In this document: one piece after another, positions 1,735 to 62,521 of the stretch
Position numbering within the stretch: the first letter of the stretch is position 1
Layout of the letters: each line of letters begins with the position of its first letter
Source: Escherichia phage LorandFenyves_Bas91
Direction: 5' to 3' (one strand)
DNA: 64,000 nt
Sequence record: PQ850614.1
Notes under the pieces: model-generated
The model's input: the letters and a program-made list of their open reading frames with translations, nothing else
The model's database searches: none
Told to the model about the DNA's origin: nothing
Made by a program: the position numbers and the translations under genes

Positions 1735-4700
1735 ATGGCGCTGTATCCAATAAAGTCGCTAGGTGCTGTAGGCGTTATCGCTGATCAGGCTCCGACAGAC
1801 TTAGCTCCTAATGCTTTCACTAATGCTATAAATGCTCGATTTGTTGAGCAGAGAGTATTTAAGACGGGGGGCAATGCCCCTCTTTCTTATGTAGACGAAG
1901 ATAAGGATTTAACCCCTCTGTCTTTCGTTTCTATGCCTTTCGATTATTATAGCGCAGGTAATAGCTTTCTTGTTGTAGGTACAGATAAGAAGTTATATAA
2001 ACTGACAGATGAAAGCTTGACTGATATTAGCCGTAAGGTTGCTACAGTCACCAAGAAGGCTTCTGCCTCAATTAAGATTTATCCAGTTGTTTCTCAGATC
2101 GTTCCTAAAGAATCAACTATCTCAATGAACTTCAATCAGACCAAGAATCTAGAGGTTTCTCTTCTCCCTGCCGATGCTAACAATACTGATCTTATTTGGG
2201 AGGTTAGTAATTCATCCTATGGAAGTGTTACGGTAGACCCTAGTGACTCCAAACTTGCTACTCTAACATCTTTTGAGAAAGAGGGTAATCTTGTAGTAAC
2301 TATCTCTACTGCCAATGAATCCGTAGTGGCTCAGATTGCTGTTAATATCATCGATGGTGATTCAGGCATCTTCTTGAGTCAAGATACTGTTACAATTCGT
2401 AAAGGAGGGACTACTACTCTCACGGCTGTTACTGGCAAAACCCCTGTAACTTGGTCCAGCAATAACGCTTCTATTGTATCTGTAACCCCTAACGCCAACT
2501 CTTTAACTGCTGTCATTACAGCGAATGGAGAAGGTAATGTAACAATCACTGCTGATAACGGGACTAAGACTGCTTCTTGTGAGATTGTTTCTATCCCTCA
2601 GATTGATAGTATCTCTTTAAGCCAGTCAGATGTTACTGTGAGTAGAGGTTCTCAGTATATTTTAACTGCCACCCTTTCTCCTGCTAACGCCCCTAATCAA
2701 AACATTACTTGGACCTCTTCTAACCCAAATATTGCAACAGTATCAGGGACTAGCACACAAGGGACAGTAAATGCTTTACTTGCTGGCTTTACTGAGATTA
2801 CAGCTACCACTGAAGAAGGTAATAGAGTTGCTGTCTGTACTGTACGTGTAGATTTAGCTGGAAGGACAATGAGAACAAGTGCTATGGCATTTGCTGCTCC
2901 TGTATCAGAGTCGGTAGAAACTCAAGATGAGGAAGTAGTAACTCCTCCTGAAAGTGAGGAAGTTGTTTATTTTGCTGAGCCTACATCTGGTATAGATACG
3001 TCAGGGATGTATGAAGGTAATAACTTCTATGACTACTCTAACGTGAATGATATTGAAGGTTTTGCAAGAGCTTCTTTACTGGCAACCCCTTTGTCATCTG
3101 TAACCTTAGATATTGTCAGCGCTTCTCTTGATGTTGGTGAAGAGATTGTCATTACAGCCACAGCTTCTCCAGAAGGTGAGTACTCTTATCAGTGGTCTGT
3201 TGATAAAACTGGTTATGTTTCTACAACTTCAGTTACTGGTAAATCTATCAAACTGGTTGCTCTTCGTAAAGGAGATATTAACGTAACATGTACTGTCAGT
3301 CAGATGACTCAGAAAGATTACGATGCTTTTGATGACTATCCTTGGTATCACGCTGTTATCTCTAACTGTGCAGTTGCTACAACTCACTATGAAACTCCTC
3401 AGGTAAAAGAATTCGAATCAGAATACTTTGTAGACCTTCCGGGGTGGGGTGAGCAAACAGTTGTTGATAATGATGGAAACCCTTCAGTCAAGAAGTTTAA
3501 CTGGAAATGTGAGAGAGTGAGATCTTTTAACAACCGTCTTTTTGCCCTGAATATGAGAGAGGCTAATGCTTCTGGTGTTACCACTAACTACCCGCTTCGT
3601 CTTCGTTGGTCTAACTTTGCCAATGAGAACAAGGCTCCTACACTGTGGGATGATTTTGCTTACGATCGTGTTGTGTCTTCGGACTTAGCTTCTAACATCG
3701 TAGGGCAGACTCAGGCTCTAGAGAATGGATATGCTGGTTACATTGATTTAGCTGACTCTAACGGCAGCTTGATTGATATCCTACCTCTTAAAGATTACTT
3801 GTTCGTTTATACAGAGTTTGAAACGTATATAGGTTCTCCGACTAATAACACGTACCAACCTCTAATGTTCAAGAAGCTCTTTAATGACTCTGGTATCCTT
3901 GCTCCTGAGTGTGTGGTTGAAGTAGAAGGTAGTCACTTCGTAGTTACTCAGAACGATGTAATCTTACACAATGGTGCAACCAAGAAGTCAATTGCATCTA
4001 ACCGTGTCAAGAACATGTTGATTAACGAGGTGTGTCTGGTTAACCCTCTAGCAACTCGAGTACACTTGCATCAGGATAAGAAAGAAGTTTGGGTTCTGTA
4101 CGTAGGTCCGGGAGAACCAAAAGAAAGCTTCGCTTGTACTAAAGCTGCTGTATGGAATTATGAGTTTGATACTTGGTCTTTCCGTACTATTCCATATGCT
4201 CAGTGTATCGGTCTTGTTGATCCTCCTGTTTTAGAAAGAGGTCCAATCTGGTCTGACTTCCAAGAAATCACTTGGGATGACCCATCTATTAAAGAACTTG
4301 TTTGGAGAAAGGATGCAACAAACTTCAGACAGAGGGTTACGATAGTAGGTTCGTTCTTGAGGGGATTCTATCAGGTGGATGTAGGTGCTCTTGACTATTT
4401 CTATGACAGGCTAAACGATGTTGTTATAGAGAAGCCTCTGGAAATGAGGTTGGAGAGGACTGGTATAGATTTTGATAATGTGACTAATGAGTGGAATCAG
4501 AAGCATATTAACAGGTTCCGGCCTCAGACAACCGGTTCAGGTATTTACATATTTGAAGCTGGTGGTAGTCAATTCTCAAATGAATATGGACACCCACACA
4601 CATCGAAGACTTATACAATTGGTGTTGACAGGCATGTCTCGGTGAGACTGAACCATCCATACCTTTTCTATAATGTTATAGATAATGATGTTAACAGTAA

Positions 4701-51013: not shown

Positions 51014-51089
51014 TGGTCGGGACGGAAGGATTCGAACCCTCGTAAGGCGAGTTAGAAGCTCGCTGCCTGTTCCACTAGACTACGCCCCG
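51014..51089 (-). tRNA. tRNA-Arg (anticodon UCU), CCA encoded
   Basis: Hand-folded cloverleaf: acceptor CGGGGCG/CGTCCCG, D-stem GTCT/AGGC, anticodon stem GCGAG/CTCGC with loop CTTCTAA, T-arm GAGGG-TTCGAAT-CCTTC, discriminator A plus CCA. Confidence 0.85.
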
Positions 51090-56509: not shown

Positions 56510-56611
56510 CTTTGATTAGATTCTTTGATTAATGCACTGAATCAATGCACTGATAAAAGAAAAGGCGCTACCCGTTAAGATAGCGCCTTATGTTTATTCA
56601 AATTGTCTTAC

Positions 56612-57511
56612 TTATGCCGCCTGACGTGCCGCCATAATTTCAGCCGCTTTACGCAATACTTCTTCCTCTTCTGCTTTCGCCGCTTGTTCGGTACGGGTAG
56701 CAACCGTTGAAGAGATACGACCGCGCAGACTTTCTAACTTCTCCTGCATAGCTGCAACAGTCTTTTCCATTTCATCAGCATATGAATCGAGTGATTCTAA
56801 TTCCTTGCTTGATGCGTTCATCAGGTAGTTATCAGAGATCGCTACCGTTGAGGCCGTGACTTTCTTGATGAGTGAATCAAAGGACTTTTTAACCTTGCCT
56901 ACTTCTTCACTTAAGGCAATGGTGTTATCACTAGTTGCGCCGTTGCGCTCATCAGCCAGTAATTTGGCTTCAATACGGATTGCATTCAAGCGTTCAACCA
57001 AAGCGTAAATATCTTGGTTAAAATCTTCCTTGTTTTTCGCCGGAATTTGCAGGTGTGCCGCCACGTTGTCATTACAACCCTTGTAAAAGTTAGGATTATC
57101 GACTTCAATTTCACGGCCTAAAGCAAAGTTTTCGAAAGCGTTTGACCAGCGAGCGCGGTTTTGTTCCATTTTGGTTTTAATTTGCGCTTCTTTCGCGTCT
57201 TCTTTAGCTTTCGCCTCACCTTCCAGATTAATCCACTTTTTACGACCATTTGCCGCATCGGTGTTAAACTTGATAGGAGTTAAGAAAGTAATTGCGGTAG
57301 CGATAACATCCATATCACGGAAACGTTCGGTTAACAGGAAGTCAACCGCCGCCTGCAATACATCTAACTTCTTACCATTACTGCGGAAGTGCTGTAAGTG
57401 CCCTAACAGGAAGTTAGAAACATCTTGTTTGATCGCCGCGTTATTGCTACGAATGTTGTTAGCCAGTGCATTAAAACCGGATTCGTTAACCAGAGTAAAG
57501 ATTTTAGCCAT
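56612..57511 (-). CDS. early protein with coiled-coil C-terminal half
   Basis: ATG at 57511 after AAAGGTGA; first gene downstream of the ORF-free promoter region. Confidence 0.5.
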   Translation of the reverse strand: MAKIFTLVNESGFNALANNIRSNNAAIKQDVSNFLLGHLQHFRSNGKKLDVLQAAVDFLLTERFRDMDVIATAITFLTPIKFNTDAANGRKKWINLEGEAKAKEDAKEAQIKTKMEQNRARWSNAFENFALGREIEVDNPNFYKGCNDNVAAHLQIPAKNKEDFNQDIYALVERLNAIRIEAKLLADERNGATSDNTIALSEEVGKVKKSFDSLIKKVTASTVAISDNYLMNASSKELESLDSYADEMEKTVAAMQEKLESLRGRISSTVATRTEQAAKAEEEEVLRKAAEIMAARQAA

Positions 57512-58433
57512 AATATTCACCTTTCAATTGTAAGGGCGCTATTGCCCCGCTCTCTATGAGCTTGTTTAAGTCACTATTAACTTATCTCTAACCACTCACT
57601 TTTTAAGTAGTTACAGGTAAGCGAGGCGGTCTTATCAGGAGTTAACCTTGCCGCCTCCTTATCCGTGATGTTTCATCTGGTATCTTTAATTAGTCGCTAT
57701 AAACGAAGCCGACCTGATAGCGATGATCAATCATCACAATAAGGCAGTGCGTCCGACTCTAATTAGTTACGTTATTGTAACCGTCGGCAATATCGTTTAC
57801 TTTGCTTTCGCTCTCGCCTATCCTTTTGTATCAACTCTCAATCGCTAGTCATCGCCCACTACGGGATACTATTGCGAAAGAGTCATTGACCGTCTAATGT
57901 TCCGACGTTTTATATCTTTCGGCAAGTTTACTACATAAACCGACTATGTACTTTCATCATAAGATGAATCTCAAGCCGTTCACATCGTAAACGTTCACAC
58001 TAAACCTTATTGTTAAATAGCAATTTGCCACTTTTTAACCACTCCCCGCCGCTCTCAATTGAGCGTTAATTCGTCGGGATTGCCTACCCTGATTAACTTC
58101 TTTCACCGTAGCACCGTTTTAGCGATGACCGCCGCTACCCTTAACCGTGGGCGATTAGCTTAAGTCTTTGCGTGTACTCGATGAATCCGTTTTATCAGTG
58201 GTGACGTTTCCAGTAAGGGAATGTAAGATTGTTTTCTCTGATAGTTTAGAGAATCTTACACCGTTTTATCTGGTATGTTATCTGATGGTTATTATCATCT
58301 AACATATTCAACCGATATAGGAGAATGTTTAAATTATTAAAGAGCGGTAAATCTGTCAGTGTGCTTTCTCACACTACGCAACTGTTAGCCGTTGTTACGC
58401 TTTCCTTAAGCGGTGATTTGCTTAAGTGTGCTC

Positions 58434-58462
58434 ATTATGAATCATGTTGTTTTCGCTGTCAA
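58434..58462 (-). promoter_or_regulatory. sigma70-type promoter (TTGACA-N17-CATAAT) with A-tract UP element
   Basis: Minus strand reads AAAAAAGTGG-TTGACA-GCGAAAACAACATGATT-CATAAT-GAGCA. Confidence 0.6.
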
Positions 58463-58919
58463 CCACTTTTTTAATCTTTTTCGTCGTTCCCGCTATTGGG
58501 AGGATATATCAATCAGCTTTATTTGATTGAAGACTAAGCGGTGATGCTTATCTTATGATTCATATTGTTAAAGAGCGGTTACTACATTTACAGCTTAACA
58601 CATCGTGTTAGCTTGTCAACTCTTTTTATCATCTTCTTTTAATTCCTTTCCCTTGTCTCGCGTGAATCTATGCGAAAGGGCAAGATGATAAGTCTGATTT
58701 GTCTTTTAGGAATCTAGTGCGCTTTCAAGCATTGACCATTTGAAAGTATCGAACAAATGAGGCTTATTTTGTTGCTCATCGTCCGCCTGTTCACGTATGA
58801 ATCAGGAATCAATTCTAGTGGTCAACTAAGCGCCTTATAGTAATGACGTTCCCGCCACCTGTAAGACAAATCATATTTTTAAAGAGCTGGATGTTTCACG
58901 TCATCGCTGACTTATGCTC

Positions 58920-58948
58920 ATTATGTATCAGGCTTTTTCTAGTGTCAA
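58920..58948 (-). promoter_or_regulatory. sigma70-type promoter (TTGACA-N17-CATAAT) with A-tract UP element
   Basis: Minus strand reads TTGAAAAAGAGTA-TTGACA-CTAGAAAAAGCCTGATA-CATAAT-GAGCA. Confidence 0.6.
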
Positions 58949-59045
58949 TACTCTTTTTCAAGTATTTTCACTTTCTAGCCTGATTTTTAAAGAGCGGGGC
59001 AATTTCTTGCCTTGTATGTTTTACATCGTACCCGATGAAATGAAG

Positions 59046-59054
59046 TATACATTA
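59046..59054 (-). promoter_or_regulatory. TAATGTATA motif at the upstream edge of the ORF-free region
   Basis: Exact 9-mer on the minus strand. Confidence 0.4.
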
Positions 59055-59227
59055 ATCAGATGAGGTTGCAATAGGGTAAAGCAAATTATTTTAAACTTTT
59101 TTTGAAAGGTGGGAAGTATAAGAGAATGCGCGCGGGATAACATACGCAAAACAGGCTGTAAATCACTTTCTAACGTCCTGTAAGCCATTCTAACGAGCTA
59201 AAAGGGAGTAAGGTATACAATCACCTT

Positions 59228-59257
59228 AGAAAAGAAAAAAGCCTCATAGTGAGGCTT
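59228..59257 (-). terminator. intrinsic terminator
   Basis: AAGCCTC-ATAGT-GAGGCTT hairpin followed on the minus strand by TTTTTTCTTTTC. Confidence 0.6.
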
Positions 59258-59333
59258 ATAGGAAGGATTTAAAGCATCAGATAAATTATGACCATAGGCA
59301 TGACTACGGCACAATAAAGAAGAAAGATTAAGC

Positions 59334-59699
59334 CTATGGATTTACACATTGACCGTTACCGGATGCCATTTCATTCATGGACTCATCAAAGAGCGTCAAC
59401 GATGAGCGCATCAAGTGATCCACCGTAATTTGTTTACCGGTAGTTTCATTTACCAGTTGAATAGTTTTAGCGTATGATTGTACATGTTCAAAATCATCAA
59501 CATGCAAAATAATAACTTTAGGTGACTGTTTACCAGTTTCATAGTTTTCTATCAAATAGGTGCACTGTAAACCGTCAACCATATCAGGGGAGAATGTTGC
59601 AGCCTTTACACTACCCATAGCCGATAGCAGGACACCTAACAGGAGAACAACCAGAAAGAAGCCTACAACCGTTTTAACGACGAATTTAATAAACCACAT
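59334..59699 (-). CDS. membrane-anchored/secreted protein
   Basis: N-terminal hydrophobic anchor FFLVVLLLGVLLSAMG. Confidence 0.45.
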   Translation of the reverse strand: MWFIKFVVKTVVGFFLVVLLLGVLLSAMGSVKAATFSPDMVDGLQCTYLIENYETGKQSPKVIILHVDDFEHVQSYAKTIQLVNETTGKQITVDHLMRSSLTLFDESMNEMASGNGQCVNP

Positions 59700-61620: not shown

Positions 61621-62070
61621 ACGGGCAGCAGACCAACAGACCAGGACACGGGGAGCATACAACCGCAGGACAGACCACGGGGAAATATAGCAAGATAGTG
61701 CGGTAATAATATACCACTTAAATAATTGTATAACTCAAACATCAAAGACGTTCGTACTTCGTACTCACAAAGGCACGCTGAAAAAGAAAGTAATAAAAGA
61801 AACAATTAAAAGAAATACAATCATCCACTTAATTAATACATATATCATTATTGCACTCATAATCATTACTATTGAAACTATTATCAACGTAACTATGGGG
61901 AGCTGAACGGTAACAATACGGTATTATTAGACCTGTTATTATCACGCCTTAACAGACCGTTATCAGAGTATAGCCTTTCTCTCACTCTTTAAAGGGGAAC
62001 TAAATAAACGGGTAGCTAATGTATTGGGTAGTATACACGGGGAAATAATTACGGGGAGTAGGCACGGGGA
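61621..62070 (+). repeat. array of direct heptamer repeats (C/T)ACGGGGA(A/G)
   Basis: Exact ACGGGGA at ~61648, 61677, 62037, 62051, 62064 (and 62294), all same orientation, plus degenerate copies. Confidence 0.65.
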
Positions 62071-62521
62071 ACGCTGGAACGTTGAAAGGGAAGGTAAAGG
62101 CATTGCCAATAACCCTTTTTTAAATGAGGACTCCCCCTTTTTAGGAAACGCGCGGCGAGCGGCTAGCCCCATTAGGTCAAATCAGAATTTTAAACTCTTA
62201 TATATAAGGTTGAAAGAGAACTTATGTGGAAAATTAAGTTAATCATTAAGCAATTCAAATGTGATCATGAGTACTATCGGATACGCAAAGCTTACGGGGA
62301 TGAAAGAGTTCACACCCTTTATAAGTCCACTTGGAGATGTAGTAAATGTGGTAAGCTTAAACACAGCACATGGATGGATAGGCCTTAACGTGACATGGCC
62401 TTTATGGGGGTGCCTTTATGACAAGCCCTTTACTTCAGCGTACACGGGTTGTTGGTATGGGGTGGCCTTTACGGGTTAGATATGCCTAGCCCTTTATACT
62501 CTTATTCAGAGGAGAAGAATT

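Follow-up and report, generated by a model that had tools for sequence, protein, structure and literature searches.

Perfect boxA copies, host-type promoters and a conserved 0.85-kb structured leader RNA form a probable rRNA operon-like early control region in phiEco32-like phages

The leaders of the Escherichia coli rRNA (rrn) operons consist of tandem promoters, P1 and P2, with UP elements, a boxB hairpin, a boxA sequence and a long structured untranslated RNA, and are transcribed by a NusA/B/E/G-SuhB-S4 antitermination complex. The boxA RNA recruits NusB/S10 and, together with NusA, NusG, SuhB and S4, makes the polymerase resistant to Rho and aids RNA folding (PMC6614801). Long untranslated RNAs are protected from Rho by boxA, namely rRNA (PMC6614801) and CRISPR arrays (PMC7665894). 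GYTCTTTAANA was derived by Baniulyte et al. as the functional boxA consensus for gammaproteobacteria (PMC5725501). Here we describe the spacer of ~1.9 kb that separates gene 125 from gene 124 in Escherichia phage LorandFenyves_Bas91, located in a 64,000-nt stretch of sequence record PQ850614.1 (the whole stretch is called the window below). We consider it probable that this spacer is the main early transcription control region of the phage and that it is built like a bacterial rRNA operon, i.e., as a Nus-modified early unit with a large non-coding RNA at its beginning. The region had previously been singled out in a reading of the bare DNA letters and their translated frames (the sequence-only reading).

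Judged by sequence identity, the phage is a Kuravirus, that is, a phiEco32-like podophage. The 2 kb around the spacer are 99.3% identical with the Kuravirus Escherichia phage vB_EcoP-CHD5UKE1 and 90-96% identical with phiEco32, SU10 and ~95 further Gordonclarkvirinae podophages of E. coli and Shigella. The spacer separates the counterparts of phiEco32 gene 125 (window 59334-59699) and gene 124, and since all flanking genes lie on the minus strand, transcription proceeds from right to left. The longest open reading frame (ORF) in any frame within 57540-59330 has 55 aa, in agreement with the earlier statement that ~1.8 kb are free of ORFs of at least 60 aa, and the GC content stays at 0.36-0.43 all along the spacer. 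Relatives differ in a mosaic fashion in the upstream half (59340 to ~58690), and all of them keep the downstream half.

The sequence-only reading had described a recurring motif with four copies in one orientation and two inverted ones, but did not recognize it as boxA. The core 9-mer TTAAAGAGC (GCTCTTTAA on the minus strand) occurs five times in the window compared to 0.76 occurrences expected, a number reached in none of 100 shuffled sequences. Four of these copies (58987, 58879, 58568 and 58337, with spacings of 108, 311 and 231 nt) share one orientation within 660 bp and lie on the transcribed minus strand, where the motif reads GCTCTTTAA[A/C/T]A. The repeat is thus far above chance as claimed, but the 11-mer TTAAAGAGCGG is exact in only three copies, the one at 58879 being TTAAAGAGCTG with one mismatch. 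All four spacer copies match GYTCTTTAANA exactly. This consensus was found five times in the window (0.66 expected), with four matches in the spacer cluster, all on the transcribed strand. By its sequence, the repeated motif is a perfect boxA, the NusB/S10 loading site of rrn operons and a known antitermination signal, and it adds a family of virulent phages to the carriers of this familiar signal class, for which T7 provides a precedent at the sequence level. The earlier suggestion that the motif marks antitermination signals agrees with this assignment. The two supposed inverted copies, CCGCTCTCTAT (57547) and CCGCTCTCAAT (58049), differ from the motif at two and three positions, respectively, and were an over-reading. 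They were rejected as repeats or boxA sites, being 3′ halves of leader RNA hairpins in the non-transcribed sense; of the helices containing them, helix 38 shows no sequence variation and helix 16 covaries at one pair.

For comparison, we used 15 relatives from the genera Kuravirus, Suseptimavirus and Nieuwekanaalvirus. Their spacers contain 65 exact boxA copies in total, four or five in each, and the 45 nt upstream of a given boxA are often wholly different between lineages owing to the swapping of modules. On this sequence comparison, the boxA sites are selectively maintained on the transcribed strand. A promoter match of at least 10/12 was present within 140 nt upstream of 45% of the relatives' copies, compared to 0.85% of control windows. 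In local folds boxA-1 and boxA-4 each have a predicted hairpin on their 5′ side, and boxA-2 has a weak one (see Table 1 for all positions). The stem before boxA-1 has an extra G-C pair inserted in phage MN05, and the loop of the hairpin before boxA-4 is nearly invariant. boxA-1, boxA-3 and boxA-4 are unpaired in these folds, whereas the weak boxA-2 fold (z = -0.08) pairs the first three boxA bases. boxA-3 together with its 3′ flank reads GCTCTTTAACAATATGAATCA, which is close to GCTCTTTAACAATTTATCA of rrn. A degenerate, boxA-like sequence at 58005-58021, a candidate fifth boxA, is invariant in the relatives and deviates from the consensus at position 4; since helices 17 and 18 of the leader engage it in base pairs, it probably does not serve as a Nus site.

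Two minus-strand promoters of the type TTGACA-17-CATAAT (58948-58920 and 58462-58434, here called Pb and Pd) each score 11/12, continue with a common CATAATGAGCA, and have A-tracts 5′ of the -35 hexamer. Near-consensus sigma-70 promoters with such a shared continuation, as well as A-tract UP elements, had been noted in the sequence-only reading, and the promoter sequences and the A-tracts were confirmed. Promoter-like sites as such are no more frequent in the area than expected by chance (19 vs 19.1), and only the two 11/12 sites stand out. The -10 hexamer of Pd is invariant in the 15 relatives and its -35 hexamer is TTGACA or TTGACG; at the position of the weaker promoter Pc, some relatives have TTGACA-16-TAGAAT. 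The SU10 paper (PMC4281155, text and S2 Table) lists promoters matching window positions 58948, 58619 and 58462 and describes them as "like phiEco32." The promoter array, which the sequence-only reading had rightly likened to T7 A1-A3 as a strong early array, is therefore published knowledge, as is the terminator at 59239-59257, which is annotated in SU10 and given in the same S2 Table. The BASEL and taxonomy papers do not mention the spacer.

The last ~0.85 kb before gene 124 is, by comparative sequence analysis, a conserved structured RNA that appears to be undescribed. An alignment of the 15 leaders, which begins shortly ahead of boxA-4 and ends at the start of gene 124, has 939 columns and a mean column identity of 86%. 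RNAalifold predicted 238 pairs in 39 helices, and 76 of these pairs showed compensatory changes on both sides, compared to 37 in column shuffles (0/500 reached the observed value) and only 8-11 when the structure was slid by 1-3 columns. Standard pairs were present in 98.7% of the cells vs 92.3% in the shuffles (again 0/500). The pairing is strand-specific, the 98.7% of the transcribed sense dropping to 88.4% on the opposite strand, and 383 G-U cells stand against 13 A-C cells. The single-sequence fold of the leader has -281.8 kcal/mol vs -218.7 ± 5.1 kcal/mol for shuffled sequences (z = -12.35), whereas the z values for the gene 124 mRNA and the antisense strand of the leader are -0.91 and -4.42. 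Variable columns among the 15 relatives are spread evenly over the codon phases in the leader (118/117/119) in contrast to gene 124 (77/53/236), so codon periodicity is absent from the leader. At the nucleotide level, the leader is as conserved as the gene (85.3% vs 84.2% identity). Several loops are invariant or nearly so; in the loop CAAGGUUAACUCCUGAUAAGA, 2 of 21 columns vary. With this covariation, the non-coding leader RNA proposed in the sequence-only reading, for which a covariance check of related phages had been suggested, is borne out, although that reading had missed that a single large folded RNA takes up about half of the region.

None of the 4227 families of Rfam 15 matched the leader even at an E-value of 5, and the spacer gave only two sub-threshold chance matches. 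Homologs of the leader were found neither in 5426 E. coli genomes nor in the plasmids of PLSDB, and scans of IMG/VR and metagenomes with the nearly invariant loop CAAGGUUAACUCCUGAUAAGA returned only close Kuravirus relatives. With nhmmer, only the boxA segment was found in phages PJNS034, TacPo2 and 7-11 and in a temperate-type IMG/VR contig. In its size class (0.5-1 kb), its dense covariation-supported structure, its phage association and a function that is unknown or unusual, the RNA resembles large structured non-coding RNAs of bacteria and phages such as GOLLD, ROOL and OLE, and the phi29 pRNA. It differs from them in the absence of an Rfam match and in its position as part of a 5′ leader immediately ahead of a gene, and the resemblance is one of kind only.

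Table 1. Features in and around the spacer between genes 125 and 124 (positions in the window)
Feature	Position	Strand	Description
Intrinsic terminator ending the upstream 128-125 operon	59239..59257	-	AAGCCTCACTATGAGGCTT followed by a T-run; terminator scan
Pa, weaker putative promoter	59044..59071	-	TTGCAA-16-TATACT, 9/12, A-tract upstream; uncertain, not in the SU10 paper
Hairpin GGCAA-GAAA-UUGCC	58998..59011	-	Ends 2 nt before boxA-1; local fold
boxA-1	58985..58995	-	GCTCTTTAAAA; exact consensus match; unpaired in local fold
Pb, strong promoter	58920..58948	-	TTGACA-17-CATAAT, 11/12; SU10 S2 Table entry 73996
boxA-2	58877..58887	-	GCTCTTTAAAA; exact consensus match
Optional ~190-nt structured RNA module	58690..58878	-	Directly after boxA-2; inverted repeat I1, closing stem of ~11-14 pairs
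Pc, promoter	58592..58619	-	TTGACA-16-TAAGCT; SU10 S2 Table entry 73668
boxA-3	58566..58576	-	GCTCTTTAACA; exact consensus match
Pd, strong promoter	58434..58462	-	TTGACA-17-CATAAT, 11/12, A-tract upstream; SU10 S2 Table entry 73511
Large conserved structured leader RNA	57512..58427	-	From predicted Pd start to gene 124 AUG; folded core roughly 58334-57530
Hairpin AGUGUG-AGAAAG-CACACU	58358..58375	-	12 nt before boxA-4; helix 1, compensatory changes at 3/6 pairs
boxA-4	58335..58345	-	GCTCTTTAATA; exact consensus match; invariant in 15 relatives
Degenerate boxA-like sequence ("fifth boxA")	58005..58021	-	GCTATTTAACAATAAGG (GCUAUUUAACAAUAAGG); invariant in relatives; consensus fails at position 4
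Hairpin with covarying stem	57623..57658	-	Helices 34 and 35; loop CAAGGUUAACUCCUGAUAAGA at ~57650-57630
3′ arm of 13/16-nt inverted pair	57541..57556	-	5′ arm at 58988-59003; overlaps local hairpins 57561-57549 and 57548-57534
Gene 124, 299 aa	56612..57511	-	First ORF after the leader; PHROG 13018
Strong intrinsic terminator directly after gene 124	56562..56589	-	12-bp stem with 6 G-C pairs, then T-run

The locus can be compared in detail with the rrn leader, of which the sequence TGCTCTTTAACAATTTATCAG... or TGCTCTTTAACAATTTATCAGACAATCTGTGTGGG... was found without exception in the 5426 complete E. coli genomes, with a median of seven places and a distance of ~97 nt to the 16S downstream of it; in the rrnH leader, boxA follows 3 nt after the hairpin located downstream of promoter P2. 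As in rrn, strong sigma-70 promoters preceded by A-rich tracts stand in tandem in the phage, the core GCTCTTTAA(C)AAT of boxA is the same and follows 2-3 nt after the end of a hairpin, the unit has several boxA copies, and downstream there is a long, highly folded untranslated RNA with a predicted end-to-end closing helix. Unlike rrn, the phage RNA is not an rRNA and has no E. coli homolog, the boxA copies number four or five, with one for each promoter at most, and the RNA is followed by protein-coding genes of an operon. Nothing resembling boxC was seen, and the host of the arrangement is a virulent phage. The sequence-only reading had also noted a 13-nt pair bracketing the region. This AGAGCGGGGCAAT pair exists, as an inverted repeat of 16 nt with 94% complementarity, but its significance is marginal, an exact inverted 13-mer arising in 7 of 300 shuffles, and it is not conserved, so that too much had been read into it. 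An rRNA-like processing stem formed by the pair was rejected in view of this marginal significance, the replacement of the 5′ arm in phiEco32, SU10 and EK010, and its position outside the consensus fold.

Resemblance to T7 lies in the three tandem host-type promoters near the genome end that drive early genes and are followed by an exact boxA. The analogy is closer than the sequence-only reading could have known, because T7, too, has an exact GCTCTTTAACAA, which occupies 813-824 ahead of gene 0.3, at a distance of 63 nt from the A3 start. As a side observation, an exact CGCTCTTTAACAA is present at T7 812-824 just before the hairpin region preceding gene 0.3, of which we found no discussion in the literature searched. 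T7 differs in having one boxA for three promoters and a ~110-nt leader followed by an RNase III site, with no 0.85-kb structured RNA, and in the location of its array at the extreme genome end, whereas the array of the present phage is preceded by a short operon and a terminator. The boxA core is also shared with lambdoid nut sites, and in a temperate-type IMG/VR contig the extended cassette CGCTCTTTAACAATATGAATCA is located downstream of an early promoter. Unlike in nut sites, the hairpins are located 5′ of boxA without a boxB hairpin on the 3′ side, and the phage is virulent. A lambda-type N/nut system was rejected, as no conserved hairpin was seen directly 3′ of the boxA copies. None of the proteins gp125-128 is arginine-rich like N, as far as inspection can tell, and Pfam and PHROGs gave no antiterminator match. 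With other boxA-protected untranslated transcripts such as CRISPR arrays the locus shares the consensus and a boxA at the opening of an unusually long untranslated RNA, where it would prevent premature Rho termination; in contrast to those chromosomal loci, boxA is here phage-borne, repeated and attached to very strong promoters.

Gene 124 starts with the ATG at 57511, 9 nt further downstream than the GTG at 57520 of the mechanical ORF call. The ATG is preceded by AAAGGUGAAUAU, is supported by all relatives and yields the 299-aa phiEco32 protein. Searches of Pfam and PADLOC with gp124 gave only weak, sub-threshold coiled-coil-type matches, no relative was found in PDB, and a single-sequence AlphaFold model was all-helical with low confidence (predicted local distance difference test [pLDDT], 50.7). 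The terminator directly after the gene is absent from the list of four terminators for SU10, and in SU7 one is annotated at this place. Because of this terminator, and because no obvious sigma-70 promoter was seen before gene 123, either readthrough is needed or the promoters, the RNA, gene 124 and the terminator form a self-contained unit.

From these elements the following course of early transcription can be proposed. Polymerase arriving from the upstream 128-125 operon would halt at the terminator, and host sigma-70 polymerase would start leftward at Pb and Pd and at one or two weaker promoters (Pc and Pa), all of which have A-rich upstream tracts. Each transcript would carry a boxA, GCUCUUUAA[A/C/U]A, ~10-90 nt from its predicted start, ahead of at least 0.83 kb without ORFs and, in three of four cases, just downstream of a hairpin. 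We infer that this boxA binds host NusB-S10 and, with NusA, NusG and SuhB, would set up a Rho-resistant, rrn-type elongation complex that aids RNA folding. Such a modification would be needed for the polymerase to cross the 0.9-1.5 kb of untranslated RNA before gene 124, the final ~0.85 kb of which is the conserved RNA of ~39 helices, and the polymerase may also have to pass the gene 124 terminator to reach the remaining early genes.

Several points weigh against this proposal. About half of the boxA copies in the relatives have no strong promoter directly upstream, so one boxA per promoter is not a strict rule, and the transcription starts at the boxA-linked promoters are predicted positions. 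No boxC-like UGUGUGGG was recognized after the boxA copies. C-rich, rut-like windows are few, occurring mainly at 58300-58220, and the transcript is G-rich and tightly folded; because the leader is rut-poor, G-rich and tightly folded, Rho may load inefficiently in any case. To our knowledge, rrn-type complexes resist mainly Rho and not strong intrinsic terminators. We also found no mention of boxA in connection with phiEco32, Kuravirus or SU10 in a literature search whose range did not include Savalia 2008 and Pavlova 2012.

A different emphasis would make the structured RNA the real product. It would then be a large (~0.85 kb) RNA of a new class in the Gordonclarkvirinae, produced very abundantly at the start of infection from an rRNA operon-like cassette of UP-type promoters plus boxA and acting as more than a leader, and the promoters and boxA copies would exist mainly to make it, as in rrn. 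We regard such a stand-alone, trans-acting non-coding RNA as possible, though only tentatively so; it may serve in host takeover or anti-defense, such as by decoying or inhibiting a defense system or host factor, or may be the RNA subunit of a gp124 complex. Its 39 helices, 76 covarying pairs and near-invariant loops (z, -12.4) are more structure than a passive leader requires, it is conserved to the same extent as the adjacent gene (85.3% vs 84.2%), and the promoters, the RNA, gene 124 and the strong terminator look self-contained. The phage records with the spacer DNA and those with gp124 are essentially the same (98 vs 97), and as a purely circumstantial point, the Gordonclarkvirinae are unusually restriction-resistant without a known inhibitor (PMC11990801). 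However, no 3′ end or processing site of the RNA was found, nor a terminator-like site on the minus strand between it and gene 124; similarity to Rfam, host or plasmid DNA that would point to a target was absent; and the gp124 model, with its pLDDT of 50.7, is uninformative. The leader might instead act in cis as a 5′ untranslated region that stabilizes the early mRNA and gates translation of gene 124 by a long-range helix, which we judge rather unlikely. The predicted helix joins AUUUACC just 5′ of boxA-4 with the Shine-Dalgarno region GGUGAAU of gene 124; in the global fold, two boxA-4 bases and their 5′ flank pair with this ribosome-binding region. Both the consensus fold (columns 41-51 with 914-924) and the single-sequence minimum free energy fold contain this predicted helix, and in TH34 and Bas88 the gene 124 ribosome-binding site, GGUAAAU, would pair perfectly with AUUUACC, the one-sided G-to-A change keeping the helix when read by eye. 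In the tool alignment these two rows score as unpaired owing to an offset of one base. Against this reading, the helix lacks compensatory double changes, 7-9 bp spanning 830 nt are weak evidence alone, and ~800 nt of elaborate covarying structure would be left unexplained.

That the spacer is or contains a replication origin, its promoter transcripts priming or activating DNA synthesis in the manner of the T7 primary origin or of ColE1 RNA II, seems distinctly unlikely. A large non-coding region with strong promoters would suit an origin, a transcript G-rich across 57860-58180 would favor RNA-DNA hybrids, and there are short repeats such as GATAAAACGG and ACCAGAT(A/G)AAAC, each present twice. 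Yet direct repeats of this kind are short two-copy families as chance yields them; outside the boxA family the spacer contains only short two- or three-copy repeats and not the iterons of an iteron-type origin, and neither an AT-rich unwinding block nor a local turning point in the cumulative GC skew was found. Covariation that tolerates G-U but not A-C (383 vs 13 cells) and long-range helices fit a folded RNA better than a duplex DNA element, although a role as primer RNA is still compatible with them. With four to five perfect boxA copies on transcripts of very strong promoters, the phage might also titrate NusB/S10 away from the host rrn operons and so aid host shut-off. The copies sit close behind promoters and precede a long untranslated RNA, the classical layout for action in cis, rrn operons too carry more than one boxA, and with gp79 the phage already has a dedicated inhibitor of host transcription, all of which makes such a sponge very improbable. 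The idea that the repeats reflect missed small protein-coding genes is hardly credible. In MZ234028/NC_070989 (CHD5UKE1), 10-11 hypothetical proteins are annotated within 72922-74732, corresponding to window 57521-59333, and SU7, NJ01 and MN05 have one small coding sequence call apiece in the variable spacer half. Most deposited records leave the spacer blank, the motif spacings of 108, 311 and 231 nt do not keep the copies in one frame, and substitutions preserve base pairs and not codons. A conserved small-protein ORF, which the sequence-only reading had named as the competing explanation, was looked for and not found, and small ORFs as a source of the repeats were rejected given the lack of both ORFs of at least 60 aa and third-position bias in the leader (118/117/119). 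The CHD5UKE1 proteins are almost certainly over-calls because a coding signal is absent, leaving 10-11 spurious proteins in one record where others are blank.

The rrn-like arrangement that we favor is not confined to the close relatives. The extended cassette GCTCTTTAACAATATGAATCA is located 3′ of promoters in the unrelated 65-kb phages PJNS034 and TacPo2, and the extended boxA-3 cassette also follows the early promoter of the temperate-type contig. In PJNS034 (2372-4195) and Pantoea phage TacPo2 (2500-4123), an ORF-free region of 1.6-1.8 kb between divergent gene blocks contains promoter plus boxA cassettes and a second promoter, TTGACA-17-TATAAT. The ~600-nt leader of this region shows 22 compensatory pairs between the two phages and, apart from boxA, no detectable sequence homology to the Kuravirus leader; it is the same design in a different lineage. 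In the temperate-type contig (IMG/VR 3300036802_000026, 48 kb), the cassette TTGACA...CGCTCTTTAACAATATGAATCAG at 4250-4340 faces a divergent 63-aa ORF whose translation we read as Cro-like. Temperate-type and virulent phages thus have the extended boxA flank AATATGAATCA in common. The ~190-nt module downstream of boxA-2 behaves like a mobile or optional RNA cassette. Its closing stem has compensatory changes in the consensus fold, and it is present in the window phage, phiEco32, SU10, MN05, Bas93, EK010 and KBNP1711, cleanly absent from NC-B, SU7, LAMP, NJ01, O18-011 and IMEP8, and found with 73-76% identity in the unrelated 65.7-kb phage PJNS034 (3001-3192).

Two further observations concern other parts of the window. 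Its sole tRNA, which is also its sole match at an Rfam gathering score, is a tRNA-Arg (anticodon TCT) at 51014-51089 on the minus strand. All six TCCCCGT heptamers of the 64 kb lie within ~650 bp of non-coding DNA at 61648-62300 (minus strand), flanked by the promoter of gene 128 (61503) and by the point where the plus-strand genes begin, and this stretch, presumably a genome-end or terminal-repeat region, also has direct repeats of 18-19 nt containing CACGGGGA.

Few large structured RNAs have the support of covariation, and every further example has tended to uncover new biology. The ~0.85-kb RNA is the part of the locus that most deserves follow-up, and it belongs to a genetically tractable family of E. 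coli phages, nine isolates of which (Bas86-94 of the BASEL collection) plate on K-12 (PMC11990801). The related Salmonella phage 7-11 must antiterminate its early transcription by a strategy that is undefined (Lavysh et al., PMC8948821). Because its right (early) end has no boxA, the mechanism proposed here does not extend to the 7-11 subgroup. For the phiEco32 group, the boxA copies offer a concrete and cheaply testable answer, namely that the phages may borrow the antitermination machinery of the host rRNA operons, with no phage protein needed.

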